Part shown: one piece after another, positions 8,926 to 50,079 of the stretch
Numbering within the stretch: the first letter of the stretch is position 1
Layout of the letters: every line of letters begins with the position of its first letter
Origin: Mizuhopecten yessoensis
Lineage: Eukaryota
Length of the DNA stretch: 64,000 bases
Direction: 5' to 3'
NCBI RefSeq assembly: GCF_002113885.1
Contig: NW_018408922.1
Location: 444,462-508,461, forward strand
The notes under the pieces: generated by a model
What the model was told of the DNA's origin: nothing
Seen by the model: the letters and a program-made list of their open reading frames with translations, nothing else
Databases searched by the model: none
Translations under genes and position numbers: made by a program

Positions 8926-11900
8926 ATGGCGGCTACTTCACAACAACCGACGATAGTCCCTGGATTCACCGGGAAAGCTTACCCGGATGTGTTTAACGTG
9001 AATGCCATGCGTATTCAACCACAGGAATTGAAGCAAGGACAGCTTCCAGAAAGCATGATTCGGCAGTTCTTTGAAGACGTAAGAACAGATATTGAATGAA
9101 AACACACAACTTATGATAACAGATAAACAACAATAACATCCACATGTGGCAGGGTTCAGTTGTACATAGGATTAAGGTCGCCTTCTAGCTTCGAGCTAGA
9201 GGGAATTTCCCTTTAGCTCAGTCCGAGTAGGAACCTGGAGATCGAGGGTTTGATCCCAGATGGAAGCACACTATTCTCTTTTCTGTTACACATATATTAA
9301 AACTGTATGAATACACACAGCAGAGGCTGCTAATTAACGATTCCAATGCACGTTGGCTTAGGGGGTCAAACATTTTAAGAGGTCAGAGCAACTTATCAAA
9401 AGAAGAAAAAAACTGACGCATTTGACGGCGTAACGCCAACTGGTGCAAAGGGTTGTACTAATTCTTGAACCTTTTCAATTGTTGATGACTATACTAACTA
9501 CATGTATATATCAGAGACCTTGATTTCCGTATCAAAAATGTCCAAATGACGACACCTCATATTCTAAATAATCGAATGGTATGGAATAAGCAAACTAGGA
9601 ATCATGATTTAGCTATCTTTGAGCATAATTCAAGGCAATGGAATTGTTGACCCAAATATATCAGACGTTAATTTAGTACAACGAATGCAGATTATTTTAT
9701 ATTAGTTTTGTTGAAATATTCGTAAAATAAGATCAAAGTAATGTATTTATCAATCCACAGGGGTACGTCATAGTGAAAGACTTCTTTACTCGTGCAGAAC
9801 TGGACACGTGCAGGAACGCCGTCAACCAACAGGTAGAAAATCTGGCACAGAAACTCTACGGAGCCGGAAAAATCAAAAGTAAGATTAACATTCAATCAAG
9901 ACGTTTAGATATATAATGTGTGTCCACTTTTTAATGCCACAAATGTGTATGATTTTTCATATGAGTAAGATAAAAGAGAACGAGCTCCAGATTAGTGGTA
10001 TTAAATGATTAACATCTATGTACAATTATACATTTTGACGTCAGTATTAAAACAAAAAAACATAAAGCCAAACGCCGCCATTTTCGCATTTCACAGAATC
10101 TTAATATCGTCATGATATAATAACATTGCCCTAAAAATAGATAATTGCACATGTGTTACATGTAAAAGGAATTATTTGATGCCTTTTTTACACTTAATGC
10201 CAAAAAAGGTTATTAGAATCAAATATAGGCGTCAGGACAACAGAAATATTCATCATGTTCATGTAAAAATCCGTACACCGCTTCTTCTCCAAACAGATTT
10301 GTATAGCGAATATGGATTCTTTGACCGTTTGACAAAGTTAGAGGAGGAATTCCCGGGGACGAATATCATCCTCCACAAGGGCGACGGGCTACCAGAGGTT
10401 CGTTGATAGGTATCGCTCTGTTGATCCTCTGTCTCAGTTCATGTGTACACGTATAAGTGCTACTTTTCTGTGAAATTAATTTCCTTAACTAAAGAGTTCT
10501 ACACTGTAAACCTGTACTTTTTCTTTTGTAAATGGTAAGTGGCATTATGTTTGTTAGTTAGTTATAGACATATTTGCGAAAGTATGAAAACAAATCCGCG
10601 TGTTATATATAAACTTTATTTGTGTTTCAACATTATGAAACACGTTATTTCAACTTATATTAGTCACTCTTGTTGGCCCGAATGTTAGCGCGCGGGGGGT
10701 CTTAGTGTGGGAGGAAACCGGAGTACCCGGAGAAAACCCATGTAATAATAATAATATAATAATAATATACAACATTTATATAGCGCCCTATATAATTTGT
10801 AAAATTACTATAAAGCGCTTTACAACATATGGTTAATAGGAATGGTTGATATTGTAAAAAAAAGGCTTACAATCACTTGTATACATTTAAGCAAGCAATG
10901 TGCACATAATTGAACAAATACAAGGGTGGTATTTACGTCTTTGCAAGGATTCTAAAATGCAGACGTGAAGAGGTGAGTTTTGATGTCCCTCTTGAATTTG
11001 GCCAGGGTTGATGTCGGACAGGTGCCCCCATACCTTTTCACGTCCTCGTGCCATGTATTTTCTTTTCGTAATTTTGCTATGGTTCACATACTAATGTGAT
11101 GAAAACGGACCAGGAAGATTTTCTATGGAAAATGGAAAACAATTCTCGAACGTCTGCATTCCTTCGTGAAAAAAACCTCATACACAACTTTTTACCTCTG
11201 TAAACGGACTTTTCATAGGATTTTTTTTAAAAAAGAAACAAATATTGAATTTGGTGAATTTGATATTCGTTAGAGAAATAAAATACGCAAACAATGCATA
11301 AACTATGAAATTCGTATTGTGACATACATGTATCCAGCTTTTATGATCTTACAGAATAGCAAATGCATTTGTTTGTCTCGTATGTCGTTTTACATTGATG
11401 AGACATCTTTATCGACATCTAAGGCTTTCAGAAACCTGTGGACAAATGAACGTCTGTTAAATGTGGTGGAGCAGCTTATTGGTCCGGACATAGCGGGACA
11501 TCCGGTCTGGAACTTGCGCACGAAAACTCCTCAGAACGAGGCTACCACTGTACCCTGGCATCAAGGTATGTCTTTGATTGTTGATATTCCTGATGTTTTC
11601 GCTGGATACGATGGGGGAAACATGACAGGAATCTCGTTAGAATCGGAAAACGCTTACCCTTTCTGAACACCTGGTTTGTATGTGGATTCTGATGTCTTTC
11701 CAAACGCTTTGGTATATCCTTACCCTCTGTTATCCTTTGTATTAAAGTCATATTTTGACCTTGTGGATTAAAAGGATATGGTATATTTATCTATCCGATT
11801 TTAATCGTCATTTTCTAATGCATTAAGCTTAAGACGCACGGATGCATATTTTGTCATAATGTCCTTTCGTTAGAAACGTTATTGAACAAATCACTTAGCT

Positions 11901-14900
11901 TGCCCCCATGATATACATAGTATTATGTTCTCTAGTAGTTATACAGAGTCGTCTTTCTGTCGCCATTACTGCGTAGATTCTGCCTACCTTGATACTGAGT
12001 CGTACCATGTGCTCCAGCCGACTGCCTGGATCCCACTTCTGGATGCTCACGAACAAAATGGATGTATGCAGGTAATAAAAACGGCATATTGTTCACGACC
12101 TCTTCATTCTTGTTCTTGTGTCTTTTTTGTTCTTTCCTTCTTTTATATGTCCTCTTGGTTGCTCTTGCTGTCATCATGGTCTTTATTTTTTTAATAAATA
12201 GATAACTTATCTTTTGTATGATGTTTTTAATTGCGCTGGAATTAAGAATGAATCGAAATTTCCAGACCAAACGAACAACGTTTTTTTACATAAAGTATAT
12301 GTAGTATAATGTCCTTGCGAATAGGTGCGGCGATTTAAAGTATTGAAAAATACATCAATAGCGCGGACCAAATTGCAACCATACAATTATACAGTACTAG
12401 TATTGACAGTTAGAATTAAATTTGAGTCAAAAAGATATATAATGTATATAATATAGTTGAATTGATGAGCTGACTGGCACATGATTAACAATTTACTATC
12501 ACCATACGAGAAGAATTGTATAATTAAATGTTATATTCTATGTTTAAAAGGTTATCCATAAAGGTCACAAGAAAGGAATTGTGGGTAATCATCAGTGTTG
12601 TCATGGTGGCACGTGGTATGTCATGCTCGACGAAGAAGAAATGCAGAGAACGCTTGGTAAAAATCTCGCGTTATTTGTACCTCTATATGTGCTGTTATTT
12701 GCTAATTATTGTAACGACGTTTAAGGACAATTCATCTCTTATATCAAAATCATGATTCTGAAGATTTGTTTTGCCCAATGATCAATAAAGAGTGATAAAT
12801 GTTGTGGAGCGTGTACACTTTATTGTATAAACTTTCTCGGCTATTGCGCAGACGCAGACATTCCAAGCGACATACGAACCTGCCCTGTTCCATACGGTGG
12901 TATGCTGCTGCTGAATAACGTTATTCCACACAGAAGGTGAGACATTCGTCGGTGTGTTAATGATAGCATCGTGACGTCACAATTTCCGAGTTATATTATG
13001 ACGTCACATTTGAGTACATATATAAAAATATATATGGGGCAAAGAAGTAATTCCAACAGTGTGGACAAGTTGAGACTGTCAAATTTTCGGAGCGATCCGC
13101 TCCTTTTTCAAGAGAAAAAAGGAGCGGATCGCTCCGAAAATTTGACAACCTAAACATGTCCACACTGTTGGAACTACTTCTTTGCCCCATATTAAATTTT
13201 AAGTAACTCGTATCCTACGGACATACCACCATTAGGATCCAGTGTTATAAGGGGTCTTACCGTCTATATTACTTCTTTGACCCATAAACAAATATATAGA
13301 CAGAGCGAGAGCAAAGTTCGCGGAATTTAGACTTTCTTGAATAATCTTTTTTTCCAAAAGTAACAATGATTTTCGAGTAAAAGGTTATATCAAAGATTTT
13401 AAAATGATTTCCGTTTCAAGTGAAATTATAAACATCGTGACATCTTTTGTGGCCACATATACACTGTATCAGCAAAACATATTCCTTTATGCTTTAGTTT
13501 GTTTTGAACACGCACAGTCATTGACGCCACACAAAGTATTTGCTTGTTTTCGAAGGCGTGTGTTTCCTTTGTCAAACATAGATTTACTTTGATTGACAAC
13601 GGAAACAGACGTTTATAAAAGCTCCAAAATAAGTTTTCAATTACTGTTTGAGTTAAAAACAAACTTACATTTAGGAACATATTTTGGCTGTTTAGGAGGT
13701 ATCATCTTAATTTGAAATCATCAGAAAACTATTTAGATAAGTAATAAAGTATGCTTTATTTTTTTTTATAGCTTACCAAACATGACAAATCAAATTCGCT
13801 GGAGTTTGGATCTACGTTTTCAGAACCCAACGCTTCCTTATGGTTTTTACGGGATGAAAAAGGGGGTTATCTTTAGAAAATCGAACGACCCTGATTACCA
13901 GATCCCTTGGCAGGACTTCCTGAACGTTGACAGACGTGCTAAACAGCGTCAGGCTGTAAAGGACCTAATGGAAAATGTACGTTAACAAGTGTATGCTTAA
14001 GGAAGTTCTTATCTCCCTTGAGTTATGTTCCCTGTCATCGCCCTTATAATACTAACTGTTATGAAATAATATGAGTTATCTCCCTTCTGCGGCTATTATT
14101 TCCCTTGAAATTACCGTCTTTTGTAATTAACATGAATAGCGTTGTTTCGATATTTAATAATCTCCCCAAAGGCTTGGTTTTAGTTAAGGTATTTTTCGTT
14201 TATCTTTGTGTTTCATACTTTTTTATATTTATTGTTTAAAGAGTATAATATTACAAGATTTAAAATGTTTACCTTGTACTGAGGGTGAGTTCATATTTTT
14301 TAAATTGATGACTTATATTTGTTTATATGCAATTTTGAATTATTTAATTTATATGTATATTCATGTAGCTGTTATATGCATACTTAATGAGTAATTAACA
14401 TTTCATATTTAGGTGGGTACAATTTTCAATTAAGTGATACATAAATTAGTGATTAATATGTAAATTCAAATGCAGGGATCTATATTACATACTTGTATGT
14501 ATAACTTAAAGTTATATGTACATATACAGGTAGTTGTTACTGATCAAGTTATTTCTGTTCGGCTTTATTACAATCATCTAATTACTCTGTTTGCGATTTC
14601 GATTTCCGAACCCTTGCACATTACGATGACACCAGTCGGCCACAGGCGTTTGATAAATCATATCTCCTAGAAATGTAAGATGAAAACTAGAATTCAATAC
14701 ATTCACGACTTAGACGTTCTGATATGTTCTTCTCTTACTATTACATGACTATTATTTCGATATTTTTTACTCAGAGGAGAACTTCCCCTTAGGGTTGAAT
14801 GTTATCCTCATTGAAGAATGAAATGAAAAATTCTTCACTCATTCCAGGCGACAGATGAGGAATTTAGTACCACCCTGGAAGGCCCATGGATGAGGAAGTG

Positions 14901-14976
14901 GGAGATTGTTCATACAAACCAGCACACGAAACGTGCTGAAATGGAAGATAGCCTCTGGGACGAATGCAAGGCGTGA
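8926..14976 (+). CDS. PhyH-family (phytanoyl-CoA dioxygenase-like) Fe(II)/2OG dioxygenase, copy A, ~377 aa, intact
   Basis: Exons: 8926-9078, 9761-9878, 10297-10397, 11424-11565, 11977-12071, 12551-12656, 12852-12936, 13772-13976, 14848-14976. All introns are GT-AG and the ORF is continuous. Motifs: QFFEDGYVIVKDFF, VPWHQD (HxD), AWIPLLDA...NGCMQV, IPHRS (distal His), IRWSLDLR (RxS). Ends WDECKA*. Confidence 0.9.
9205..9290 (+). mobile_element. Short degenerate tRNA-derived SINE
   Basis: A-box-like TAGCTCAGTC and B-box-like GGTTTGATCCC, ending ...TCTGTTACA. No intact cloverleaf. Confidence 0.35.
10690..11050 (-). mobile_element. V-domain-like SINE interrupted by an L2-type 3' tail fragment
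   Basis: GGGAGGAAACCGGAGTACCCGGAGAAAACCCA is the reverse complement of the V-SINE core TGGGTTTTCTCCGGGTACTCCGGTTTCCTCCC. It abuts (TAA)n-ATTTATATAGCGCC...AAAGCGCTTTAC (L2 tail, minus strand). SINE-like sequence resumes at ~11012. Confidence 0.55.
13032..13286. mobile_element. Near-perfect ~160-bp foldback element with an extra downstream terminal repeat, in intron 7 of copy A
   Basis: ATATGGGGCAAAGAAGTA...GGAGCGATCCGCTCCTTTT / AAAAGGAGCGGATCGCTCC...TACTTCTTTGCCCCATAT spans 13032-13192. A third terminus, TTACTTCTTTGACCCATA, lies at 13269-13286. Confidence 0.75.
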
Positions 14977-17461: not shown

Positions 17462-17572
17462 ATGAGTGAGTGGAATCCAGAAATATTCAACATCGAAGCG
17501 ATGCCACCATCGGCACCGCAGCAGAAAATAGGCCAGCTACCAGATGATGTCATCAAGCAGTTTTTCATAGAC
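17462..17572 (+). CDS. Isolated paralogue of PhyH exon 1 (alternative first exon of copy B, or relic of a fifth gene)
   Basis: MSEWNPEIFNIEAMPPSAPQQKIGQLPDDVIKQFFID aligns with exon 1 of copies A-D. It ends at the same phase-0 position with a consensus donor GTAAGT. No exon-2 homologue was seen before 20685. Confidence 0.7.
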
Positions 17573-20684: not shown

Positions 20685-23600
20685 ATGGCGGACAAAAGAA
20701 CGAACACTTCCATCCCGAATGGTTTTACAGGGGAAGCAAATCCGCATTTTTTTAATCTGAAAGCGAAACCTCCCACTTCTCTGGAACGGAAGCTTGGACA
20801 ACTCTCTGAAGAGATAATCAACAAATACTTTGAAAATGTATGGATTGTACTTTATATCAAGTGTGTTATCTGTTCCGTCGTTTATTACAAGTTGCAATTA
20901 AGGTGGTATTTTTTAATTCAATTTTCGCTTACAGGGAATAATAGGTGAACAAAATGTATGTTGTCCTTATCAAAGACAATAGATACGGTAATGAAAACTG
21001 CAAATACAATTATGCCATAATGTGGAATGTCTTTATTTAAATATTTGTATCTATTTATATGTGCATCTATTTATTTCACATTCATAATTAAATGGTATTC
21101 TTGAAATTATTAAGTACAACACTCTAGATAAAAATAGAATGTTGTTTGCGAGGAACTATATATTTAAATGCTTTAAAAAAAAATATTGTATTTTACATAT
21201 TTATAACTACATGATAGTACGATGCCTTTGTGAAAATAAAACGAATGGACGATATAACTTGTTAGAAAGGATCTTATTTTCATTCATATGACACAGCGAG
21301 GTTTGCTTGGACAAATATGCGTGTAGTGTATGAACACTGAAAAAGAAAATTTTATCAAAAGCAACAGTCATATTAATATAAGTGCTCAAAAGAGTGCGTT
21401 GTATTTTATTTACTACTAAGATTTCAACCTTGATTTATATGGCGGATGTCGTTAATAAAGCTTCCTTTTCCGGAACGCCTGGTCTTAGTCCTTTGTACAC
21501 ATTTAACGATCTCCATTTTTTGTTGATATTTTGCCCTAGTCTCGTCGATTTTTAGGTTCAAATTATGGTTTAATCTTAAGAGGCTACATTCTCAATGTTT
21601 GTCATGTGAGATTATGGACACAAGACTATTCTCAACGCGTCATAATTTGTGCATATAACTGAGATTAAGAATGTCAGTTCTTTTAATATTGAAACGTTTT
21701 AATTTCTACAGGGTTACGTCATTGTGGAAAACTTTTTCAAACCAGAGGAATTGGACCCCTGTAAAGAAGCAATCAATGATATGTTAGATGAAATGGCACT
21801 GCAGTTTTTACAGAAAGGAAAGATCAAAGGTACATTTGAATGCTTGTGTTACGAATCACTCTTAATGGTCAAATACTAGTATACTTTTGTCTATAACGCA
21901 ACATCTGTTTTATCTAAAATTCTTTTAAAGGAAAAAATGACATCTTTAAACCTGAACGTGTTTCAGATTTTGTTGCCCTATCATCTGCATTGACACATTG
22001 TACAAGAATATCGTATTCAACGAAACTTGCTCTGTGGTTTTACTTTATGGTCATATTCCTTTCGAATCAGTATTTGATTGTTCTGTTTGAGTTACATTGC
22101 ATTGTATAAATACGTGTAACACTTACTGAAAGACTTGTATTAAGTATTGTTGTGTTTTATTGGTGTCGTTAACAAACATGAATTAGACACAAAGCAATAT
22201 TTCTGTTGACAGAACTTTACAAAGAATATGGTTTTTACGAGAGGCTGTCCAAGATTGAGGATGACTTCCCAGGGGCAAACATCGTCCTACATAAGCTGGG
22301 AAAACTTCCACAGGTATAGCTCAGCTTCCATTGTCGTGTGTGTTATAAACCTTCCCAACATACCAAACTAGTAATACCATAGTGTCAGAAGTAAGGTTGA
22401 TATATAGTTCCATGCAAGGTAATAGTACTCGAGATTTATCATCCTGCTTTTATCTGAGGTACTCCTTCACACGAGTTACATTGTGTATATATAAACCAAT
22501 TTCAAATGATGATAGCAAAATATGGATACTTTGAAATTTAATTTTTACATTTACAAGTATAAAACACTAGAAAAAAATCCATAAACAAATTTGTATTCGA
22601 TACCACCATATCAGAATTGACGTGAGACGAAATCATCCGCGTTCAAAGTTAACAAATCCCTTTTAGACTGTGATAATTGTTAGGCTAGGACTGATGTAGA
22701 CACATCCATTGTCAACAAACAGTGAATGACAGGAATATGATACCATACCAAACTGACGCTGAATATACGGACTATAGTAGTATGATAATTACAGGAATCC
22801 TTGATTACAATAATGACAAATTTTCTTTGAAAATTAAACTTCTTGTTAGGACTACTGTTTTATCGCCCATTTTTTATTAGGCTTTCAAAGATGTATGGAC
22901 AAACGAACGCCTACTGAACGTCATTGAACAGCTTATCGGTCCAGAAATTGCTGGCCATCCGGTATGGAACCTTCGAACGAAGACACCCCAGAACGAGGCT
23001 ACTACTGTGCCGTGGCACCAAGGCAGGTTACCAAACAGTGATATTAATTACGACATAGTCTTAATAGAGATACGTGTATTTACATAATATAAAATATAAA
23101 TAAGCAGCATATCATATATTAAGGATAAAAGAAAACTGATATTTCTATAGTTACTATTATAGATGTATATTCTTCTATTTCTAGATAGCGCCTATCTGGA
23201 CAATGACTCTTACAGAGTGTTACAGCCGACAGCCTGGATACCTCTGATAGACGCTACAGCAAAAAACGGATGCATGCAGGTATTGTTAATGTCACAATGA
23301 TGGAATTTGTATTCGCTGGTGAATGATATGGCAAAAGATTATTTTCACCTGAATTTGTGAATCCTCTGAATGTTATATCGGGTCAAACTACCATCGGATG
23401 GACTAGACAAACGTTCTTTAGATTACCCAAAACTACGAAAGTTAGTATTTTATGTTCTTAAATAGTTTTAACGATAGTAATATTTCACATATGATATTGG
23501 TTCAAGAGTGCTTTTTTGGTTTCAGGGATAGGAATGGGATATTCCATAAANCATGAGACACCTTTTATGCCACTTCTCTTCTCAACATAAGTTTTGCTAG

Positions 23601-25587
23601 AATTTAATACAGCTGTATAATGTCACAAAATCGCTTACAAACTACAATTCTTTATTCATAATCATGTAAATTTGTTACAATAGATTGTTGTTGTATGGAA
23701 ATTAAAATAGGCTGACCATAGAGCATTCATTTTATTTCATAAACAGTGTACACGTTGTTCTTTTATCCACCAGGTGGCGCACCGTGGCCACAAAACCGGT
23801 AAGGTTGCTACTCACCAGTGTTGCTATGGAGGGACGTGGTATGTTATGCTGGAGGAAGATGAGATGGCAAAATCGTTAGGTAATTCTTTGTTTGTCATAT
23901 TTCTAGATTTTTTTTTATTTTTGTTAACTCATGTCATGTTTGCGACTGTATTACAAACCGATGGTCTTTTGTGTGTTTGTATGATTGCTTTGAAAACTAC
24001 AAAACTGACTTTATATTTCATAAATGTCAATGCTGTTCATACATATTTGATATTTTATCTATGTAATCGTTTTTAAAGATATCGTCATCTATGTCTTAGC
24101 TGTGAGTATAATTAAGATAGAAAGACAATATAGCATCACTAAAGAAAGACAAATGAAAAGACAATGTCGGCCAGAACAGACAACAACAGCATTTTAACTG
24201 GTTTGTGAAACTTATTAAATATCTGTTTGAAAACGGCTTTTGCAGATGTGAACCTGGAGTCAGATATCAAGACGTGCCCAATTCCATATGGTGGCATGCT
24301 GCTGCTGAATAACATGATACCTCATAGAAGGTAATGGGATCAGCTTAATATTTGTTTATTGCTTGAATAAGCAACTTTGTTTTACAATCTACCACGTTCC
24401 ATGGAACAGAATTTTAACCAATCAAACTGACTGAAAATGTTAAACCATCCCTTATTTCGTTTCAAGGACTACTAGTTGATCGGCAGTGTCAGGAATGTGG
24501 ACAAGTCACAATAATGTACTGTTCATGATAAATTTGATGCAGAAAGTATATGTAAAGCAATGAAATCAATATAACTGTAAACAGACTTATTTCAGTAGCT
24601 GTCATAAATCAGGAGTTGTCGACCTAATGAGAAAACAATTAATTAGGATCACCGCTATATCACAGCTAGATGAAGCTTTAAATCTTGACACGTGTTATTT
24701 AAAAGATGACACACCGACATACTTGTTTAAGGACGTTGACAGTTCATATTATCAATTATTAGTAATGTACTTGTAGCTTGCCAAACCTATCGAAACAAAT
24801 TCGTTGGAGTTTGGATTTGCGCTGGCAGAAGCCATCACTTCCTTTTGGATTTCACAACATGAAAAATGGGGTATTGATGCGAACATCAAAAGACCCTAAC
24901 TACAAAATCGACTGGAACGAATTCGAGGGTGTTGATCGCCATGATAAACAAAGAGAATATGTGAAGGAGATACTTGAAGTGAGTATTGAAACAACCAAAC
25001 CTGCATTCTGCAGTCATAATTTGTGAAGAATCAGAGTAGTCGAATTGTTGTCTGCGTTTTCCGTTGTGGGGGCAATGTCGCGACCAAAACATATCTGATG
25101 CATTTTGCGTGATTTTGGACTTCCGATTTTTTTCTCTGGTATTTTTTCTGTAACGTTTTACATATGTTTCCCTCCTCCTGAGATTATGGCATTGATGACT
25201 CGTTCAGATAACTAAATAAATTAACATTTTCTATAGGATAGGAGAGGGTTATTAAATATCACAAACCTGGACATTTTTGTCACCAGGATCTCATAGGTTA
25301 AAAAACAGTGGGTCGCAGTCATAATTCTTCGATCTCGAAAATCATTTCATGAGAATAGGTTACCACATTTAAGCATTTGTTATTGATATATGGCCATATC
25401 ATGATACTTATGAGATTGAGTTATCGTTCATCCCTTGTAAATATATTTTCAGCCATCGAGTGACCCAGATTTTGACATAACGATCCAAGGGCCCTGGATG
25501 AAGAAGTGGGAAATTGTTCACATGAATCAGCATACTGCAAAACTTACAGACGAAACAATGAGTTCCTGGCATGGCCACAAGGCATAG
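20685..25587 (+). CDS. PhyH-family Fe(II)/2OG dioxygenase, copy B, ~378 aa, intact (intron 4 is GC-AG)
   Basis: Exons: 20685-20837, 21712-21829, 22213-22313, 22881-23022, 23185-23279, 23774-23879, 24246-24330, 24777-24978, 25453-25587. Exon 2-7 lengths (118/101/142/95/106/85) are identical to copy A. WHQD, PHRS and IRWSLDLR are present. Ends WHGHKA*. Confidence 0.9.
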
Positions 25588-32312: not shown

Positions 32313-33433
32313 CTGTAACTGACAAAACAACATGAACGTTCCTTACGAGACAGGTGTTAGGGGATGTATGAAGATACTGAGAATTCAACCATCAACACGG
32401 ATATAACTTTTCAGAAGAAAGCCAATTACTCAAATATGCATTAATGTATTTCCATTTTAAGTATAACTAGACAAACTTTTATTTATAATTTTATATGAAA
32501 CTTAAATAGTACGTTACATATTAAGAGTCACGGGTTTCATTTCTGTTGGTAATCTCTGGCTTTCAGCCCTACAATAATCTACTCTTTCTACAAATAACGA
32601 TCTATAAAATTCGTGTGACTCTCCAATGTTTACCAAATCATTGCAGATCTCTACAGTAAATATGGACTTTTTGAAAGATTAACCTACATTGAGAAAGATT
32701 TCCCTGGGGCGAACATCATGTTGCACAAATACCCAGAGCTATCTCAGGTATGTTTCATAGAAAACACCATCTTGTAGTTGTAGTTTATTTTTATTTTTAT
32801 CTAATATACTTGAACAAATCACATTAATCAGCGATACAATTTGGTAGAAAAAAAACAGTCAAAATTGTTAAAACTAAGGCAAAATATAAACATTTGAACT
32901 GATTTTCAAGGATTGGGGGGAAAAGACTAAAGAAAGTTTGGTCGGGGAACCTCGAGCACGAGAGGCCAACACGAAAACAATAACTGAAACAACACACATA
33001 GAGAAATAGAATAAATACCGAGTTCAAAATAAAATTCGATAACCGATATAAAAAACAATTTACATATGGGTTACGCATAACTATATAGTTTCTTTTTCAT
33101 AAAGAAATTTAGGTTAATGTGTTAATATATTAACATTCCATAAGCACATTTTACCATTGCATAGTTATAGATTTCATATTGAAATTATACAATGGTACAT
33201 GTAATGGTACATGTGTGTAACTGGCTTTCTTGTATAGGCATTTAAAAACCTGTGGACCAATGAGCGTCTTCTGAATGTGGTTGAACAACTCATTGGACCG
33301 GAAATAGCCGGGCATCCATTATGGAATCTGCGTACAAAAACACCCCAGAACGAGGCTACTACAGTTCCATGGCATCAAGGTAAATTAACATAGTATTTAT
33401 ATCAAAGGTCGTATAACAAAACGAAAAAGGGTT

Positions 33434-33578
33434 NNNNNNNNNNNNNNNNNNNNNNNNNNNNNNNNNNNNNNNNNNNNNNNNNNNNNNNNNNNNNNNNNNN
33501 NNNNNNNNNNNNNNNNNNNNNNNNNNNNNNNNNNNNNNNNNNNNNNNNNNNNNNNNNNNNNNNNNNNNNNNNNNNNNN
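33434..33578. other. Assembly gap (N run) in intron 4 of copy C
   Basis: Run of 145 N. Confidence 0.99.
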
Positions 33579-34640
33579 TTGTGTGATAACTAATGTACAA
33601 CAGCCTATTTACAGTACTAATGGTATTAATAATTTCGAATTTTAGACTCTGCCTATTTGGACAACAAGTCTTACAAAGTTCTACAGCCCATGGCCTGGAT
33701 ACCTTTACTGGATGTAACAGCTCACAATGGATGTATGCAGGTACGATAGTACCTCGTCCATCTTACCACTTTCAAGCTTTCGTTATGATTTATGGGACAA
33801 CAGCATTACTTGGAAAATCAAGTTTAACTAATTGATTTCCTGACGTATTTGGATAAGGCCCAAGTTTTAGCATCTTGTTAATAACCTCATATTCATATAC
33901 TGAATCACTAGCTTGAAAGTGAGAAAAAACAGATAGATGAATGTAACGTCATGGACTTGAACACCATTTTAAGCCACGTTTCAAAAAACATCGCCACAGT
34001 GTAAATAATCACTAAGTTCCTCATACTAATAAATTAATTTTATACAATAACCAATTACGAAAAGATATTCTGCTACACAAAAATAAATAAACATTTTTTG
34101 AATTACATAAAGTTTTAATATTTAAATGATGTTATTTCACTTTTGATATCTTCAGGTTGTTCATGGGGGGCCACCGAGCAGGAAAGGTTGCCACTCATCA
34201 GTGTTGTCATGGAGGCACGTGGTATGTTATGGTGGATGAAAATGAAATGCAGAAAAGTCTCGGTAAGATATTTTTGTATAACATATATTGTTCCTTTAAT
34301 TCAAATAACAGTACAATGTATGATGCTATGTTTACCTTGTTGTTGGGTTTTTTTCGTGAGAAAAAGAGTGCTTGTTGGCAAACCTTTTAGTTTAGCTGTT
34401 ACCTTAATTTGACGTGTATATCCGTTCCGAACAGTTCTATTCAGAAAGTTATACTTTTATAAAAGGTCATCATGTTGTTTAATGACAAATTTGAAAAGTA
34501 CAAAAAATATAAGAATCTGTAGCAAACGGGTGCTAATTAATTATAACAATCATAATTAAGACTTTTTCAAGGGAGAGAACTCCTATATAAACCCCATGTG
34601 TATTATATAAGGTTACATTATTTTTAACTATTTTATACCA

Positions 34641-34895
34641 GGGCCCGTATTCATGAAACCATTCTCATGCTCAAGCATGGATTTTGTGTTCAAGCCAAAT
34701 GTCTTGTTCTTGTTGTAACTTAATAAATAGATCTTGTTTTGTCAATGATTTGGAAACATTTTGAAGAAACTTGAAGCTAAATACTGTTTCAATACATTTG
34801 ACTTTTTGATCGTTTGACATTATTTAAGCTAGTTACAAGAAAGTTGGCTTGATCACAGAATCCCTGCTTGAGCACGAGAACATGAATACCGGCCC
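34641..34895. mobile_element. MITE family 2, second copy
   Basis: GGGCCCGTATTCATGAAACCATTCTCATGCTCAAGCATGG...GCTTGAGCACGAGAACATGAATACCGGCCC. The interior is the reverse complement of 6927-7176. Confidence 0.75.
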
Positions 34896-37126
34896 TGTGC
34901 AATCCTATGTGTGTCTAACGTTCATCTACAATAATTTCCATGCTTAAAGCATTCATTTGTGTTGGGAAAGTAGTTCTGTATTAGTTCACAAGAATTTTTA
35001 ATTCTTTTTCATTATACAGGTGTAAACCCTGCAACTGATATAGTCACGTGTGAGATTCCTTATGGTGGAATGTTACTGTTAAATAACATGATACCACACA
35101 GAAGGTAGGGAACACAAAAACATTATTTCACATCTTTGTTGTTCTTAAAGTATGTAGCACGAGAATAATATCATTTATTTCAGTGCGTTTCAATCAATGT
35201 TGTTCAAAGTTTATATTAAGCATGCGCAGTAACACCAGACATTAATGACAGAGAGGGAAACTGGATCATTAATTAGGGCATGACATTTTGTTTGAAACAG
35301 AAAAAAACACGTTCTGAAGATAATAATACCATTTCAAATATCACAAGACATTTTAAAATGCAGGTGTTTGTTCGTGTAAAATCAGATTGAGACGTTTTAG
35401 AACGTTTGTATGTAGCTATGTAAATTCATACAAAACTGCATAGTTATTATTTGTATTACATTGAGCCGGATTAATTTTTAAACATATTTGTTCAAATTGA
35501 CTTATAAAAATTTACCTCACATTAAAAAAGAAATACCATCACAATCACTAATTTGCTTCAATAGCTTTATATTTTCATCAGAAGTGCATTTCAAGTGCAT
35601 GATCCCTTAGTTGTATTTATTTTAAAAAAACACATGAGGAAGTAGAGTTCAAAATATTTAAATCTGCTTGGTAGATATACGCAAATAGTGGTCTCTGAAA
35701 AGACAGGATTGCTTACTATAGACAGTTTTCTCGAGGTGGGGATGCATATCAAAGTAGATAGCATTTATCCTTAAGTAAACGTGTGTTATTCTTGCAGTCT
35801 CCCAAATATGTCCGGGGATATTTGATGGAGTCTTGATCTTCGCTGGCAAAAACCAGATCTACCATATGGATTCTACGATTTGAAACAGGGCGTTCTTATG
35901 AGGACTTCCAAAGATCCAAACTTCAAAATGTCCTGGGAAGTCTTTGACAGTGCCATTCGACATAAACTTTTAAGAGAGGCAACCGTAGAGGTTCTTATTT
36001 TTGGCATCTTTTATTTGCCTCTTTCATGTTTAATTATTTCAGTTCGCAAAAGGGAACTTAAGGATATTGGCATGCAGAAACTGTAAATGTATAATATGAT
36101 AGTGTTTTGGAAGTATATCAATTATTCTAATATACATAAGTATATTCGATTTATATGTTATGTTAAAATGGTACTATAAACATAATTTACTATTAATTCC
36201 TCTGTAAAACGTATAACTTAACCTATGTTATATATTTATGCTGTGTTAACTGACTGCCAGAGAGCAATCAGCATAGTATAGTACAGAGATTTCACACAAA
36301 AAATGAAAATGATGAAACGAAATCAAAACTTGTTTGAAACTGTCAAACAATGTCACAATATGTAAAATATAAAGCTTGATTTCATCTGATGTTTAGATTA
36401 TTTGTTTCAAAACAAGAAATATGTAGCGCATCTATTATGGAGAGAAGACGAATACTTGTTTAACCGTTACTTAAGTCAAATCTTAACTCTATTATATTGC
36501 TATGTTTCATTTGCTGTGTTGTTAGAATGAAGACGAGGACGACTTTGACACAACTATTCAGGGGCCATGGATGAAGAAATGGGAAATTGTGCACGTGAAC
36601 CGCCATGTTGAAAGCTACAAGGAGGTCCGCCAAGCTGATAGGTCATAACTTTCTGTAACTGTATTGATGTTTAAAAAATATGAGTAATTGTATGGAATGC
36701 TTTTTATACTTCATCCTGTGTTGAGTTAATGAATTTGCAGAGGTTTGTGGAATCTGTTCATATTCAAAAATAGGAGGAACATGGCAGTTGGAACTGTAAA
36801 TCAATGTTTAGTGAATTAAAATAAAACACGGCTTAAGGAAACTAACAACTTACGATGAACACGAAAATTACGCGTCGACACCAAAGCAGCCATTTACTAC
36901 CTTTAAAATTACCTTTGTGTTGCATTTCAAAGAAATTACATATTGTTGTCAATTGTTATTGATAAGAAATCAAACAAACACACAGATGTGTGTGTTTTCT
37001 TCCATGTGTTTTTTTGTGTTATTTGTGTCTAACAGCTGAATATAATAAATTATTGGTAATTTATTATAACTCATTCTTCCAATGACAGAGACTGACTATT
37101 TTAGCAGTAAATTACATGATTTAAAA

Positions 37127-41407: not shown

Positions 41408-44400
41408 ATGGCGAACGCTCATGTCGAACCAGATCTAGCAGGGTTCACTGGGGAGGAATATGCAGAAATATTTGATATACGGGCAATGCCTAAACCTACA
41501 ACAGAACGAGAAGTGGGCCAGTTACCAGAGAAGGACATTAGGAAGTTCTTCGAGGAGGTAAAACATTTATTTCATTTCTTATTAAAAAAAGGAAATATTC
41601 TAAAGCTTATTATTCTAAATAACTGAACATATACCTATACATATACATATCGTATATTCAACAGCAACGATGTAAGCAAAGCTCGGTATTTAAACTACAG
41701 AGCTTATAATGATACGCAAGAGCGGAGTTCATTCAATGTTTATTTACATACTAGTAAGATGTTATTTATGCAACACATATCTAATTTTGACAGGGATATG
41801 TAGTTGTAGAGAATGTCTTCCGGAAGGAAACTTTGGAAGCCTGTAAGACGGCCATAGACAAAATGGTTGATGAGCTTGCTCAAAAACTGTATAAAGCAGG
41901 AAAGATCACAGGTAGTAATCTCATTTCATTTTTAACTAAATTTATCTCCATTTAACGTTTCTGATTTTGTTTTAGTGGAATAAGTAATCTCAATAAAAGA
42001 CATTTTTTCGAGTCTTACCTTTGACAGGTTTTTGAGCTATATAGTGAAAAACATATTCCACTATACCCTGGAACATAACCAATTGATCAATTTATCCTAT
42101 TGTATATATATATATATATATTTAAGCAAAGTCGTCTGTTCAATTTTTCATTAAAAGTTAATTACTGAGAATCTGGTTTTGAAATAAAATTAAGAAATAT
42201 AATTTGTTTTAAATGTTTTGCAGATCTGTGTGAAAACTTCGGAACCTCTGATAGGTTGATCAGATTGGACAATCAGTTTCAAGGGACAAGTGTTCTCTTT
42301 ATAAAACATGCCCGATTGATGCAGGTAGGTAAACATTGTTAAAAACACATGGAGATGAATCTTTCCGATTAATGTTTAAATTAACCAAAATTATAGATAA
42401 TTATATAATGGTATGATGCATGTATTTTATCACTCTACCAGCCGTCTTAAACCATGTTAACGTAGTAAAAATTTCAAAATCAAAACGCCGGGTGACGTCC
42501 TGAATCGGAAATAGTACCCACACAAAGGTCTTCGTAATAGGAAAATAGTCCATCGTAAACAAAAGCAGTATAAAATGATGAAAAAAATATTGTGAGGAAA
42601 ACAACACCATTTAAAGCGTAAATAAGGTATATGGAGAATCCAGTGACGATAATATTGTTTGAACATATTTTCGTAAATAGTTTAAGGTTCATGAAATCTA
42701 TGAGCTTACATACATCTTTTAAGTAAGTGTAATATTATGTAGCATAATAGTATAATACAGAAAAAAAATAGATACAAACTTATGGATTTCGACTAAAAAA
42801 AACAAAAACAAAAAAAACCCAGATATCTTGACTTCATTTATTCTGAAAATTCGCATTTTCTGTATTTGGTATGCTCCAAACGTATTTTACTAGATGAAAA
42901 TAATCTGCAGATAGATTATTTAATGGCATGTTTTGAAGGAAGCATGAAGTGTTGATAAGTAACATTGTTCCTTTTTTAATTGTTTGACAATTTCTCGTGG
43001 GTTTTTTTGTTTTGTTTTTAATAAATTTATATCAATGATAATTCTATACGAAATATCAAGTCAAAATAAACATTGGCAGTAATATATATCTGTAATTTTG
43101 TTTGGGTACCACTGTCACCCTATTTAGTGTAATAAAAATAGGTTTAGGTCACCTGTCGGTAGTGATATTGCATAATTTCATCTTTGGGGTATTGTTCATA
43201 TATACAAATATAATATTTCGCTTTTATGCGATTTATGAATTAGCGAAAACCAGTCTACACGTGAAAATATATACACCGCGATCAGTTTATAGTGTCACAG
43301 GCAAGAATTTCAATTTTACAATGCAATAAATTTAACGAAAAAAGAAATAAAGAAATGCTTTGCAGCTATCTAGCGTTTTCATCTCATGATTTACTATGTG
43401 ATGCTTTAAATATCCCTCATAACAAATGTTATAATCAGGCGTTTAAGGACCTCTGGACAGACGAAGTGTTATTGAACATTGTCGAACAACTTATAGGCCC
43501 GGATATAGCTGGTCACCCAGTTTGGAATCTACGGGCAAAGCTACCACAAGATGAAGCAACAACAGTCCCATGGCACCAAGGTATCGTATAAACGTCTGCC
43601 CTAGTCACAATCCTCTTGGAATGCTTATTCTTTGTAATCAAGCCATGCATATTCGAGACATTTTTAATGTCATACTGCATCGCGGAAATTCTACATGAGG
43701 TAACAACTAGCTTAATGGTCTTGTGGCAAGTTTAACCATAAATTGTATCACACTTTTGACAAATGTCGATAAATAGTCAGGGTTTATCTGCATTTGGCTC
43801 CGTTTTCAGACAGTTATTCTGTAGCTGCTAAATCTATTGTTTTATATGATCTCGAGGTAACACTAAAACTGTTTAATTCATTTCCTAAAAAAACATTTCC
43901 AAAACGTATGCATATCTTTCGGTTCTTGATGTTCAAAATTCTCACTTTTAAACCTCTTGTCTTCAAAAGATTTAAACACATCGAGTCAGATACACCTGAT
44001 AACTTATAGTTGACCTGTTTGGGAACATCAAAGTACAATTAGTGCTACTTATCATCAAAATCAAATACATAGAATACGGGGTCGACAGTAACAAGGGAGA
44101 TATTTATTTATTTATTTATTTCCAATTCAACAGACCCAAGGGTCCACTAACAGAATGGATAACAACATCACAACACAAGTATAAAATATCACAGTCAGTT
44201 ATGCATGCAACACAGACTAAAAGATACTCATATGTAAAACAAAAGGAATTAGTGATAGCAAATATTCTTTAACCATTCTTTGAACTCGGCGAGAGAGGCA
44301 CAAAACATATCACAGTCTGGTGCAAAATCAAGATAGTTAAAATTACCTTGAATCCTGTTTAAAATACTATACTTTCTAACGTTTATTCTACTTCTCTGGC

Positions 44401-47400
44401 AGTAAAACTGGTTAAAACGAGTTGATCGTAGATTACGACCAGGGAATTAAAAAACACATTTGCTTGACTAAATATGGACAATCAAAAGCACTATTAACAC
44501 ATTTGTAAAGAAATACACAGTCTAAAAATGCCCGCCTATGTTCGAGGCTAGGGAGATTAAAATGCCTACAAGTGTCAGCGTGAGACATGGAATTGTAGTC
44601 AACGTGTGCCTTAAAACAATAGTTTACGCTGGACAACTTCGACCTGGTGAATTAAAGATGTTTGGTAAGGAGACCAGATCTGACAAAACTTTTACATGTA
44701 CGTTTTATAAAACCGAGCATTCGCATTGATTTGGAAACAGTACGTCTAATGTGGGTACTTAAACTCATTGAAGAGGTCAGCCAAACACCAAGATCTTTCA
44801 CACACCATTCATTCTTCAGGTTGTCACCGTTCATAGTGTAATTAAAATTCATACATTTCTTCTTGTTTGTAAAAATGACCTGGCAGCACTTCTTCACATT
44901 CACTTTCATTTTCCACACAGTGCACCAATCATACACTCTATCTATATCGCTATATATATCGAGATATGACACGTGGAGTTGGAACAACTTATCGTTAGGA
45001 AGATAAATAACCATCAAATCAGTAGTAATATTGACCTTAGATTATGACGGGACAACACATCCTGACCGTTGGTCAATTCCGTATAAGTTACGTAGTCGTA
45101 TTTTTATCTAATCTGACAATGATACACTTTCGACATCCTTGTACTAGTATAGTATCTCACTTAATGCATGTGATAATAAACTAACCAATATGTTATCTAC
45201 GACCTATGATATTACGTTATTGTTGAAATTATATGTTATTAGATATGTGTTGCACATTTATTCTTGCATCGTAATTTGTTTGACTTATGAATACAAAAAC
45301 AGGAGAAAACTGAATTCCAAATAAAACTTAGGCAAAGTATGATCAAATATAAAATCTGGATCGAGGATATCAAAAAGTATGATAGTAAGACCATGTGTTC
45401 CTGGAGGTTAAGCTTTAAGGTTTAATGGCTGCATACTAACCTTTCTCAATTCTAATGATGTTATGCTTCATAGTTGGAATTATTTTTATTACATTTTCCG
45501 GTTCCGAATATCTTCCTACTCAGGAGTATTCACTGAATGAGTGCTTGTGAACTGCTGTATCATAATTTCATTTGTGAATTTGATTAAATATCAATATACT
45601 TATTCTCATCATGAATTGACTTTTTACAGTGAAGTGTAAGGTTTAAAAACAATAAAATCAGATATGAAAACTGAAAGGGGCAACATTGTCCTACACATAC
45701 AGAACTATGCAATGTTACAACTGATGATAATCCTATCACTTAACATTTAACATTTAATGTGTACTTACAAGAACATTCTTGATGGATTTGGGTTTTACTT
45801 GATACAATGTTAGAGGGTTTTGTGCACTTGTCAAGATCATTTAACAATATCACCAAGAAAAATACCCAGTCTCAAGTGAGATTAAAACTCAATATCTCCT
45901 TGCGTTCATTTAAGTAATTCGTAAATGATCACGATATTGATGTTATCACGGTTTTATTATATTTCTGTCTTTTTAATATTAAACAAAGAATAAATTCGAT
46001 GTAATTCGCCACTATGATACATTTTAGCACATGCATACATTTAAGTAGTTGGTGGAAGTTGAAGTAGCCAATGAAATGATTTAGACTGATGTTTATGTGA
46101 CAAACAATCTTTATATGTAATTTAGATTCTGGTTACCTTGACACGAATAGTTACCGTGTATTACAACCCACCGCCTGGATACCGTTTGTGGACGCTACAG
46201 AGACCAACGGCTGCTTGCAGGTAATGTTATATCATATGCAAACTCAATAACATGTTTAAAAAATGTTTATGTCATAGATTTCTATCTTAAATTACATGAC
46301 TTTTTGTCGAAACTTATTTTTTCAACAAATAAGACATTACAACAAATGCCTCATATACTTGTACATAATATAAGTTGCTTTGCATATTCAATATTGCTTA
46401 CTATACATGGGCCATATACTGGACCAATTTCTATCCGCCCCGCATGCATCTCCTATTCCACTCAATTCAGAAAACAAAATCATGCTTTAATTACATTTGA
46501 TTTCAGTTACAGCTGATAATTGTGGCGTTAAATTAGAAAGTTCAAAAAGTTGAATAGGATATGGTAAAAGAAAAGCATAAGGCCGTTTTCATATCCCATG
46601 CCTATCAACCCGCGACGATCTCAGCCCTCGGGCGTCCGGGCCCTCTGATAATTATAATTTAGTAGTTTTCAAATACAATGATATCAGTGCTTCAATAGGT
46701 TGTGAAATAATTGGGGGTAAATCGAATAAAAAATGAAGCAAAAATTATGATAAACTACACAGAGGAATATACTGGGAAACAGATTGAACTCCCGGTTGTC
46801 GTGTCTTAGCTGTGTTCGATAGGACAATATGGCAGTAGACTGTTCGTTTACCAATCGGTACAATGGTGTTTCTCTCTTTGCGATTTTTTTATAACAATCT
46901 CTGGAACAGCTTCCCAGCTAAAAAACATTTTGCTAGGACCTTCAATTTCTTTTTCAGATATATCTTTCAGGTTTTTGTTTTATATAACAAAACATATTTA
47001 ACACGATTGCATCATGCTACCTTCAAGAATTGGAAATTACATCAGCTGCTTAACCCGATCCGCTCTTATATAAATGGATGTCATACTACAAAGCTATATG
47101 ATAGCCACGTCCCAGTTTCCGCCACTTTCGGTGTTGACAAGTTGATTCGATATTAACGGTTCCTTGCTCCGAATTTTACAATTTTCGTAATGTTCAACAC
47201 ATGGATTCAAAAGATGCAAGTTTGGGAATATTTTTTTAGAGTTATAAAACAACATCGTAAATTAATTTATGATTAACTCAAATGACTCAAAAGTGTCATC
47301 CTATTTGACTTTCTATTATAGCAATGGAAAGAAATTGGTAATAGTTTGAATAATTTCATTATATTTTATCCAAGATGATGCATGGTGGCCACAAAACTGG

Positions 47401-50079
47401 GAAAGTCGCCACTCACCAGTGCTGTCATGGTGGTACCTGGTATGTAATGCTGGAAGAAGACGAAATGGAGAAAACACTTGGTAAACCTTAATCTTAAACA
47501 TCAATATAAGTCGATACATTTTATCTTTTCCCGTTTTTGTTGGGGGTTTTTTGTGGTAGAAGGACATTATTGTTTAAATTAGTCTTTTTCCTCAAGTTGT
47601 ATCGGACGCGATATCGCAGGTAAAAACCATGATGGATCTGATTCAGACTGCGACAAAAGGATGCAAATTAAATGTTGGAAATGATATGTGAACTCACTGT
47701 TGTAAAGGTAATTGGTTTTCACAGAATGACTATTTTTGAACAGACAAATGATGGTTTCTTGATATTCTGGGAGAGGACCTGCAAAAATGGTTTTCTTTCG
47801 TTGAAATTGTTTTGATTGCGTTACCAATGGCCATTAAATACATACATGCTATATGCATGCATGTCCGTCAGATTTTATCTCTGAAACGAACAATTTTGAA
47901 GTTTATACGAACCGGTTTTTCCCTTATAACGAACAGGCCCCATGTCAAACATACGAATTGCTATATAATTGTTTTTTCTCATTCAGATATCAATGTGAAG
48001 AAGGACATTAGGACCTTCCCTATACCCTATGGAAGTATGATTTTGTTCAATAATTTGATTCCACATAGAAGGTATGTTACTGATTACTCCTCTCAGTTTT
48101 TACTATATTGCATTTCCTCTTTCTTCATATTTCCATGTGATGTTAATTAGTAAATAAGTATAATATTTCTCTCCAACATTTAATACAGAAATACAGGTAA
48201 TAAAATGCTTTTCTTTAATTTTCATGGTTCATTTGGTGTATATCTGCATATTTGTAATCAAAATCTTTATTTATGAATATTGAGCCATTGTCAGCTTCAA
48301 ATGCCTGCGAGAACAAGCGAGAAGATATTGTTTTTGTCTTAGATTCAAAAATGTTGATTCTTTTCTCACAGTATTTAAGCATTGTACCGTTTTCAGAGAA
48401 TGCGTGTGGCAAACATTTTTAAACGATGAATGAAGGAAAAATTTGGAAACGCTTTAATGAAAATATTCAAGAAATGAATCATTAGGTGCACGAAAATAAG
48501 ATCACGGCGCATGTACAGAAATGGCCGAGCGAGGTCCGATTGAGATAGCGAAATAAAATCATTGAGTTACATTTATCTGCCTTACATTATTAAGCCTATT
48601 TGATCGAGGTTAAACCTCATCTCAACAGTCAAGTCAACATGTAGACGGCTTCATCAGAACCATCCTTTGTTGAGTTAATCCGTTCAGACAATATGTTATT
48701 AATTAATTAATTAATGTATTTATTAGTCAATTAATTATCGTGATTGTTCATACTCTTTGGTGACATTCAATTTAATTAATTGCTTTATATATCTTCTAAT
48801 CTATTTTTTGGGGGAATTTTATGTCAGTCTAGATTTCTGATTCTGCCATTGTTTGTGAACACATTTGCATTTTTAAGCAATGGTTACCTTTTTCCCCTCA
48901 TCAAGTTTAAATAACGCGTCAGACCATATCCGTTGGAGTGTAGACCTACGCTGGCAGACTCCACACCTCCCATACGGATATTATGGCCTCAAACAGGGAG
49001 TCGTCTTCCGCACGAAGGAGGACCCTCACCCTGTAGTAGATTGGGACAAATTCGAAGGAGTGGATAGGTTCAAGATCACTGCTGATGCTGTTAAAGACAC
49101 GCCACAGGTAAACCGATCGATTCTGAAATTTTAAGGTTATATTTAGGTAAAGCGAAAGCATTATTAATAAAAATTATTTTAAAGTAAGTATTATAATTAC
49201 TGGAAATACGAAGGAAGGATGCCCATATTTTAAAATAGTTATTCTACATAGGTAGCTAGACAGACAAAGTATATGTTAACTGTACTATATGAACATTTCG
49301 TTCGTCAGTGCTACTATAAGTAAAATAAAAAGAACAAAAATCAAAGTCTAAAGTTTGGGATACAACATGTGTTATTAAACTAGCATTTCTTATATACAAG
49401 GTTACGGGACAGATACTTTCATTTCAACATTATTAAATGGTTTTAAAGTTCACACATCACAAAGATAAGATGTGTGATGTTTTATGCTATTACTTTAAAC
49501 GTTATTTGTCAACTAAGCAGCACTATTTTGCATTTGGAATACCCGTGATATACCTGTAGGTACACAGTGGAGTCTTCAAACAGTGTACCTCCCATGACCG
49601 ATAAAAAAAATCCTGTTTGTGCATTCAGATTAGCTTAAGTTACAATAGCTTGATATATGTTTAGCTTAAGAAGGGAATTACTTTGTTTAAAATAATGGTA
49701 GCAAGACGCCAAACAGTTATTTAGTTATGGGGGTTATGGTGAGCATTCTGCCGTGCTGTTTTTGAAAGTCAATTTAGGGGAGAAGCTTACTATAGAATCT
49801 GTAGAACGACATTTTATAACATTTTTGCCGAGTTTAACAAGACGGATGGCCTCCCCCTCCTGCGTAAGGCCGAAAGTTTATGGTCGCTTAAGTATTTTAA
49901 ACTTGCAAAATGATATCAATTTTTTTAAGAATATGTATTGTGCTTTTGTTTTATACCAACAGGAAACAAAGGAAGCTGATTTTGATACATCCATTCAGGG
50001 ACCTTGGATGAAGAAATGGGAAATCGTTCACGTCAATCGGCATGTGCAGAAAATGCAGAGCGAGGAGAAGTCCGCTTAA
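41408..50079 (+). CDS. PhyH-family Fe(II)/2OG dioxygenase, copy D, ~371 aa, intact, most divergent copy
   Basis: Exons: 41408-41557, 41794-41911, 42224-42324, 43439-43580, 46126-46220, 47375-47480, 47987-48071, 48906-49107, 49963-50079. All introns are GT-AG with the same phases as the other copies. WHQD, PHRS and IRWSVDLR are present. Ends QSEEKSA*. Confidence 0.9.
44100..44965 (-). mobile_element. 5'-truncated CR1/L2-clade LINE in intron 4 of copy D
   Basis: The minus-strand translation DIDRVYDWCTVWKMKVNVKKC...VKDLGVWLTSSMSLSTHI...MLGFIKR...LPSLEHRRAFLDCVFLYK matches the C-terminal RT region. A (TAAA)n 3' tail lies at 44100-44121. Confidence 0.85.
46800..47200 (+). mobile_element. Degenerate Penelope-like RT remnant in intron 5 of copy D
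   Basis: WQ*TVRLPIGT (QTVGIPMGT-like), FARTFNFFFRYI (FRYIDD-like), TTKLYD and LIRY occur in the expected order. Confidence 0.55.

Follow-up and report, generated by a model that had tools for sequence, protein, structure and literature searches.

A tandem cluster of PhyH-fold oxygenase genes in the scallop Mizuhopecten yessoensis and a candidate link of its family to methylated sugars

Genes of the tandem cluster

The subject of this work is a tandem gene cluster at positions 8926-50079 of a 64,000-nucleotide stretch of contig NW_018408922.1 of the scallop Mizuhopecten yessoensis (the whole stretch is referred to as the window). Reading the sequence over 8000-51999 and splicing by coordinates gave four co-oriented nine-exon paralogues, termed A-D, in the span where a first-pass annotation of the DNA had placed four such genes for PhyH-type Fe(II)- and 2-oxoglutarate (2OG)-dependent oxygenases. 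The cluster itself is real but ordinary; its value lies in the family to which the copies belong, which spans sponge to amphioxus, protists and SAR11-type marine bacteria, and the database names of which are misleading. What is new here is a lead to the substrate, obtained from gene neighbourhoods and pointing to methylated sugars or cyclitols. The coding features of the cluster are as follows.

8926..14976, + strand: copy A, intact, 377 residues, P0002 (RefSeq LOC110440617); exons 8926-9078, 9761-9878, 10297-10397, 11424-11565, 11977-12071, 12551-12656, 12852-12936, 13772-13976, 14848-14976
17462..17572, + strand: first coding exon used alternatively by copy B, 37 codons followed by a GT donor in phase 0, yielding a 364-residue isoform
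20685..25588, + strand: copy B, intact, 378 residues; exons 20685-20837, 21712-21829, 22213-22313, 22881-23022, 23185-23279, 23774-23879, 24246-24330, 24777-24978, 25453-25588
29266..36648, + strand: copy C, broken as assembled; exons 29266-29421, 30171-30289, 32647-32747, 33238-33379, 33646-33740, 34156-34262, 35020-35104, 35798-35990, 36526-36648
41408..50079, + strand: copy D, intact, 371 residues, P0133 (RefSeq LOC110440563); exons 41408-41557, 41794-41911, 42224-42324, 43439-43580, 46126-46220, 47375-47480, 47987-48071, 48906-49107, 49963-50079

Once spliced, A and D are letter-for-letter the RefSeq proteins of M. yessoensis, and A, B and D have zero internal stops. Intron phases are 0,1,0,1,0,1,2,0 in each of these three copies; exons 3, 4, 5 and 7 are of equal length in all four (101, 142, 95 and 85 nucleotides), and exons 2, 6 and 8 are near-equal (118/118/119/118, 106/106/107/106 and 205/202/193/202 in A/B/C/D). 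Splice sites are GT-AG throughout, with the sole exception of a GC donor at 23023 (B intron 4, GC-AG), which is also used by the RefSeq isoform P0347. Coding identity between the copies is 62-67% at the nucleotide and 56-61% at the amino acid level, and a blastn comparison of 32 introns found one 27-nucleotide repeat in common between copies and nothing else. The shared gene structure and the absence of intron similarity described in the first-pass annotation are confirmed, as is its view that the duplications are old, on the grounds of intron divergence together with the separate orthologue groups that the copies have in other scallops. Single exons of the copies gave no Pfam match, full-length proteins being needed.

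In a tree of 87 named proteins (quick IQ-TREE with SH-like approximate likelihood ratio support, SH-aLRT, only; unnamed proteins and those shorter than 280 residues omitted), each copy forms its own scallop orthologue group with support of 99-100, and all these groups fall inside a 20-row bivalve clade (support 96). The orthologues of A are P0001 (Pecten) and P0011 (Ylistrum), and those of D are P0132 and P0136. Contig data and accession order in the protein records, as distinct from gene maps, are consistent with conservation of the cluster in other scallops. Further M. yessoensis paralogues are located on other contigs (P0067, P0123 and P0153), so that, with the four in the window, the species has at least seven family loci.

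The exon at 17462-17572 had been taken as the fifth exon 1 of the cluster. The exon exists, but does not belong to a separate gene: joined to B exons 2-9 it gives RefSeq P0347 exactly, B of both Argopecten and Pecten comes in a pair of isoforms differing in the first exon only, and the Ylistrum B orthologue has an N terminus of the 17462-17572 type. From the exact P0347 match and the isoforms in other scallops, it is not a relic of a lost gene but an alternative first exon of B that scallops have conserved. Copy B is 87% identical to Argopecten P0005. The product of B exons 1-5 is almost the same as P0018, a 203-residue partial M. yessoensis protein from a contig of 3.5 kb, which is probably the other, uncollapsed allele of B annotated as a separate gene.

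Copy C carries one extra base in a T7 run at 30192 (exon 2), one in a G6 run at 34165 (exon 6), and a TGA at 35823 in place of the 2OG-binding Arg of the RWS (RxS) motif; a gap of Ns (33434-33578) lies within its intron 4. A comparison with 133 full-length relatives at the 68 columns that 95% or more of them conserve shows no further change in C, and its orthologues P0021 (Ylistrum, 86%) and P0023 (Argopecten) are intact. A protein search with C exon 1 gave no match, a weak result since copy A too has only an NCBI record. Copy C is thus either a pseudogene or null allele of recent origin, or owes part of its damage to misassembly, both indels falling in homopolymers. The proposal of birth-and-death turnover at this locus is consequently weaker than first put, because the fifth exon 1 is an alternative exon of B and two further scallop genera have an intact C; what is left is a single recent loss (C) at most, or an assembly error. 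In Argopecten, an extra C-like paralogue (P0053) is without the HxCC and WY motifs and is, from its sequence, a sign of what may be real diversification in another scallop.

Fold, motifs and distribution of the family

Assignment of the copies to the PhyH-fold Fe(II)/2OG oxygenases is supported by the Pfam PhyH model (PF05721), which scores 86.9 bits for D, 75.6 for the B isoform and 69.5 for the A orthologue P0001 against a cut-off of 22, and by structure comparison. An AlphaFold model (predicted local distance difference test score 90.6) has the double-stranded β-helix fold and matches proline hydroxylase H11, PHYH, PtlH and ThoJ with Z of about 20, root-mean-square deviation (rmsd) of 2.6-3.5 Å over 221-245 residues and 17-19% identity, the top ten matches being about equal (Z 18-21, 13-21% identity). 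ThoJ, EvdO2, H11, PtlH and EctD are among the best PDB sequence and fold matches (phmmer E 6.6e-8 to 6e-3), whereas identity to them is at most 22% and the dedicated NCBIfam models score far under their cut-offs, both for EctD (TIGR02408, 15.6-24.4 bits for three family members against 336.5) and for PtlH (NF045813, 26-40 bits against 550). The RefSeq names attached to members ('deoxypentalenic acid hydroxylase-like', 'hypophosphite dioxygenase') are not supported.

Human PHYH has the same fold (Z 20.6, rmsd 2.6 Å, 221 residues) and iron triad, but identity to it is 18% (E 6.1e-4), and to human PHYHD1 likewise 18% (E 4.7e-4), compared with 47% for a sponge and 41-46% for bacterial family members. 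The earlier statement that these are not ordinary PHYH or PHYHD1 proteins is thus upheld on the grounds of similarity. Taken together, sequence and modelled structure indicate that the family is a separate, old PhyH-fold subfamily without a solved close member.

The predicted iron ligands of copy A are H170 and D172 of an H-Q-D motif and the distal H265, with R276-W-S278 as the RxS motif; A, B and D retain H-Q-D, the distal His and R-W-S, as had been noted for three copies, and C is without the Arg as assembled. SyrB2-type Fe/2OG halogenases have Gly or Ala instead of the iron-binding Asp. In the present family this Asp is invariant, and the halogenase model TIGR01762 gives 13-19 bits against a cut-off of 226, so that the hydroxylase-type assignment made at the outset is supported. 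The peroxisomal targeting signal 2 (PTS2) pattern is missing from A, from both forms of B and from D, in line with the earlier observation, and none of these three copies has a canonical PTS1; the one PTS2 match, in the broken copy C, is probably due to chance. Hydropathy profiles of A, B and D are free of hydrophobic stretches (maximum 19-residue hydropathy <1.0), and the enzymes are predicted to be soluble.

Alignment shows a helical insert, the GHPVWNLR, VPWHQD and RWSxDLR motifs and a C-terminal GPW motif to be common to scallop and bacterial members. The extra segments picked out in the first-pass annotation are thus present, but the helical insert and GPW motif are shared with bacteria; what is confined to eukaryote-type rows is HxCC, which stands where bacteria have HxLE. 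It is present in 126 of the 133 full-length relatives and in just four of 37 locus rows, all four in the eukaryote clade. The vicinal cysteines of HxCC, encoded by exon 6 of each copy (e.g. 12551-12656), lie beside the invariant H217 and form a possible redox or metal site. Pocket-region residues R156, K158, W169, Y175, H217, W225, Y226, D280 and R282 are common to the scallop proteins and sugar-linked bacterial members. A C-terminal KA, which is not a canonical PTS1, is present in 49 of the 133 relatives (22 HKA, 15 TKA), A and B included, and is perhaps a targeting or packing motif.

Sequence searches returned 822 proteins at E<=1e-10, and 888 representatives of 50% clusters at the same threshold. 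Animal members come from molluscs, a brachiopod, a nemertean, annelids, a flatworm, starfish, Ciona, amphioxus and sponge (the sponge member is 47% identical to the scallop protein), protist members from Acrasis, Ceratiomyxa and Alexandrium, and bacterial members are 30-46% identical to copy A. The description of an invertebrate subfamily therefore does not hold; since neither this specificity nor visible turnover stands, the finding as first framed loses weight. In a second tree (64 rows, one representative per 70% cluster, quick IQ-TREE with SH-aLRT only), the animals, including sponge, form one clade (support 95) within a eukaryote-type clade (97), for which reason a recent gene transfer into the scallop was rejected. 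The sister of the eukaryote-type clade is, with weak support (80), a mainly bacterial clade that also contains Ceratiomyxa.

The family appears to be sporadic in one bacterial class, 251 genomes drawn from the class of G002 having given one family match, and is multiplied in some alphaproteobacteria, five genomes of which (G301, G293, G003, G294 and G287) have between 18 and 28 PhyH-family matches per genome, of which as many as six belong to this subfamily. A phage collection gave zero family matches, a plasmid collection gave distant PhyH genes only (best 21-30% identity), and an Atlas search returned PhyH clusters only, among them one chordate cluster not assignable to subfamily. Two characterised oxygenases were set aside as counterparts: MahX, which with MahS is a metaldehyde oxygenase (PMC9676059), in view of the same plasmid matches in a collection for which the presence of the mah plasmids is unconfirmed, and SqoD, which is near At3g21360 with weak TauD similarity (PMC12951627) and is not among the phmmer PDB matches. 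Literature searches, which covered few subscription papers, gave no functional study of this subfamily, in agreement with its initial description as uncharacterised.

Gene neighbourhoods and the candidate substrate

The neighbourhood set was made from the best 80 of 579 genome loci and the best 80 of 553 metagenome loci, which were gene-called and clustered; gene calling found 181 targets in 188 loci, and neighbour scans were run on chosen proteins only (28, 15, 65 and 88). The neighbours in the 188 loci include a MocD-like desaturase-fold gene (62 cases), PanB-like genes (17), xylose isomerase (16), Rieske ferredoxin (9) and reductase (4), most of these counts stemming from one SAR11-type cluster of 63 proteins, which adjoins CUT2 importers and a MocD-like di-iron oxygenase. 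Some SAR11-type loci add a Rieske ferredoxin, a reductase, aldose epimerase, FGGY kinase, xylose isomerase and a PanB-like gene. In L020, L107, L113, L118 and other SAR11-type loci, an operon is made up of a CUT2 sugar importer, the oxygenase and at least one MocD-like oxygenase; to judge from its composition, it looks like a methylated-pentose pathway.

Independently of that cluster, a second alphaproteobacterial group (L014, L028 and L059) has MocD/MocE-like genes and a CUT2 importer, and in other groups an importer of the CUT1 or CUT2 type is the sole such neighbour. Kinases of the FGGY or PfkB type occur near the family gene in L015, L044 and L143, rhamnosidases in L008, and a formaldehyde-activating enzyme gene adjoins the family gene or is two genes from it in L051 and L132. 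At L001:5521-11209, genes for alpha-L-fucosidase, the PhyH protein, L-fucose isomerase and a further alpha-L-fucosidase run in one orientation, a candidate O-methyl-fucose pathway. In the alphaproteobacterial clade of the tree, sugar ATP-binding cassette (ABC) genes are present in 9 of the 16 dereplicated clusters with loci, and an FGGY kinase in one more.

As a control, all 27 family loci in 15 of 49 genomes of one alphaproteobacterial order were compared with 30 loci (of 108 matches) at which five of these genomes carry PhyH genes outside the family. Within about 1.5 kb, a MocD-like gene or a sugar-type ABC component is located at 26 of the 27 family loci versus 1 of the 30 others; counted by orthologous group, the figures are 6/7 versus 1/11 (Fisher p about 0.0025, hand-computed). 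Bacterial members thus adjoin sugar importers, an association that in this control concerns alphaproteobacteria only.

Because the bacterial relatives sit beside sugar importers, the best reading, to which about even confidence is attached, is that the family comprises soluble Fe(II)/2OG O-demethylases for methylated sugars or cyclitols. The first-pass annotation had suggested osmolytes, phosphonates or pigments among other substrates, and over these the neighbourhood evidence favours sugars and cyclitols. The O-methyl group is proposed as target because of gene context and because PF05721 offers a precedent for such chemistry: PHYHD1 and FJS strip ribose 2'-O-methyl groups as formaldehyde (PMC12709175). 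The scallop proteins are like PHYHD1/FJS in the PF05721 fold, the H-Q-D...H triad, predicted 2OG dependence and, as proposed, sugar O-demethylation with formaldehyde release, but are only distantly similar to PHYHD1 and about 80 residues longer, having the helical insert, the HxCC loop and the C-terminal GPW extension; the family motifs are missing from the tested enzymes.

The substrate would be a free O-methylated monosaccharide or cyclitol (of the methyl-xylose, -fucose, -rhamnose, -galactose or -mannose type), the O-methyl group of which would be hydroxylated by the ferryl species, as in established Fe/2OG chemistry; the resulting hemiacetal would collapse to formaldehyde and the plain sugar, which would enter ordinary catabolism. 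In the scallop, such a reaction could serve to salvage methylated sugars from algal polysaccharides or from its own methylated glycans, and each paralogue may prefer its own sugar or methyl position, or act in its own tissue (B having two first exons). Consistent with such a supply, microalgal polysaccharides contain O-methyl sugars (PMC4446615), and mollusc glycans typically, though with exceptions, contain methylated hexoses, according to a source that gave no scallop data (PMC8699351).

We know of no enzyme by which an animal takes the methyl groups off such sugars. In the passages cited, free sugars and cyclitols that carry methyl groups are demethylated by bacterial enzymes, namely P450s, marine ones of which act on 6-O-methyl-galactose (PMC8360166), and MocDEF, which demethylates 3-O-methyl-scyllo-inosamine and downstream of which xylA2 is located in P. 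syringae (PMC13434037). The job proposed here is the same, i.e. O-methyl removal so that the sugar or cyclitol can be catabolised, and MocD-like genes adjoin bacterial family members; by contrast, MocDEF (membrane di-iron with ferredoxin) and the P450s (heme) have unrelated folds and cofactors. The neighbourhood signal makes the gap in animal methyl-sugar demethylation cheaply addressable, and the reading, if true, would add an Fe/2OG route for methylated sugars to ocean carbon turnover. A wider proposal, put forward tentatively, is that animals inherited the family from early eukaryotes as a demethylase of O-methyl sugars, shared with SAR11, and that the scallop paralogues are specialised by sugar or methyl position; filter feeders and grazers would thereby gain access to the methylated sugars of algae and could reuse methylated glycans of their own.

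Several points weigh against O-demethylation of sugars or cyclitols as the function of the scallop enzymes. The function is transferred from bacteria at 30-46% identity, and substrate switches come easily to Fe/2OG families; the pocket may differ, given HxCC in eukaryotes versus HxLE in bacteria; and the choice of demethylation over other hydroxylation goes beyond what the neighbourhoods themselves display. The sugar-ABC queries of the control were taken from family loci and may favour detection near family genes, and the SAR11 loci amount to one observation. The bacteria nearest the scallop protein (41-46%; Planctomycetota, Acidobacteriota and Ignavibacteriota) are mostly without conserved context, showing only scattered glycoside hydrolases in genomes rich in carbohydrate-active enzymes. 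CUT2 importers also carry nucleosides and polyols, the neighbouring binding proteins scored below every NCBIfam cut-off, and some members have unrelated neighbours (hydantoinase-like in L053, amidase/racemase in L188). The literature searches gave no enzyme assay for any family member.

The first alternative, regarded as rather unlikely, is that a non-sugar small molecule (an osmolyte, betaine, phosphonate, algal secondary metabolite or xenobiotic) is hydroxylated, the animal branch having left the bacterial substrate class. The PhyH-fold structure matches do span a wide substrate range, and both the at least seven M. yessoensis loci and several lineage-level expansions in the tree would fit. 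Pfam PhyH (9 genes, mostly up) is, moreover, enriched in the digestive gland of the queen scallop after toxic diatom exposure; the genes are not identified, and the supplement gave no match (PMC6410316). Against a non-sugar substrate, phosphonate, ectoine and betaine pathway genes were not recurrent among the chosen neighbours scanned (genes like those for DddP and carnitine dehydrogenase do occur at one L046 locus), and the nine pocket-region residues are common to scallop and sugar-linked bacterial members.

It is unlikely, too, that the substrate is a sugar or cyclitol on which the enzyme carries out not demethylation but C-H hydroxylation, desaturation or oxidative cleavage of a deoxy, amino, sulfo or ether decoration. 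The same neighbourhood evidence applies, the adjoining MocD-like genes could do the demethylation themselves, and Fe/2OG enzymes are known that cleave sulfoquinovose (PMC12951627) and the cyclic ether metaldehyde (PMC9676059). The formaldehyde-handling genes near two members (L051 and L132) argue for demethylation instead, as does the closest characterised sugar-directed PF05721 reaction, which is an O-demethylation (PMC12709175).

Somewhat more doubtful still is that the family is a duplicate of PHYHD1, acting as a demethylase on nucleosides, with a 2'-O-methyl group or another modification, that stem from the diet or from RNA turnover. Nucleoside transporters are among the CUT2 importers, as mentioned above, and the activity is described as widespread in PF05721 (PMC12709175), but the GHPV, RWS and GPW motifs occur in none of the 16 HQD-bearing rows of the supplement to that paper, similarity to human PHYHD1 is slight, and nucleoside-catabolic genes were not recurrent among the chosen neighbours scanned. 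A phytanoyl-CoA (acyl-CoA) 2-hydroxylase for dietary chlorophyll-derived phytanic acid, as implied by the database names and compatible with the Pfam name, the tie of human PHYH for best structural score and the richness of algal diets in phytol, is highly improbable in view of the low similarity to PHYH, the lack, in A, B and D, of both PTS2 and canonical PTS1, and the finding that lipid-catabolic genes were not recurrent among the chosen bacterial neighbours scanned.

Surroundings of the cluster

Two genes flank the cluster within the window.

2625..5677, + strand: CCDC97-like gene with its exons mapped in part (Pfam PF09747, E 1.6e-20 and 5e-5)
56709..57143, - strand: last exon of a Ras-superfamily small GTPase, ending CVIL (Pfam Ras, E 4e-18)

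The GTPase is one that we take to be Rho-like. A weak match to Piercer of microtubule wall at 1365-1787 (E 0.018) is under the cut-off. Degraded reading frames at 39913-40460 (+) and 44436-45041 (-), for which Pfam gave no supporting match, presumably resemble retroelement reverse-transcriptase fragments. Tandem repeats are present at 7623-8143 (38 bp), 30476-31778 (34 bp) and 37126-37426 (43 bp).

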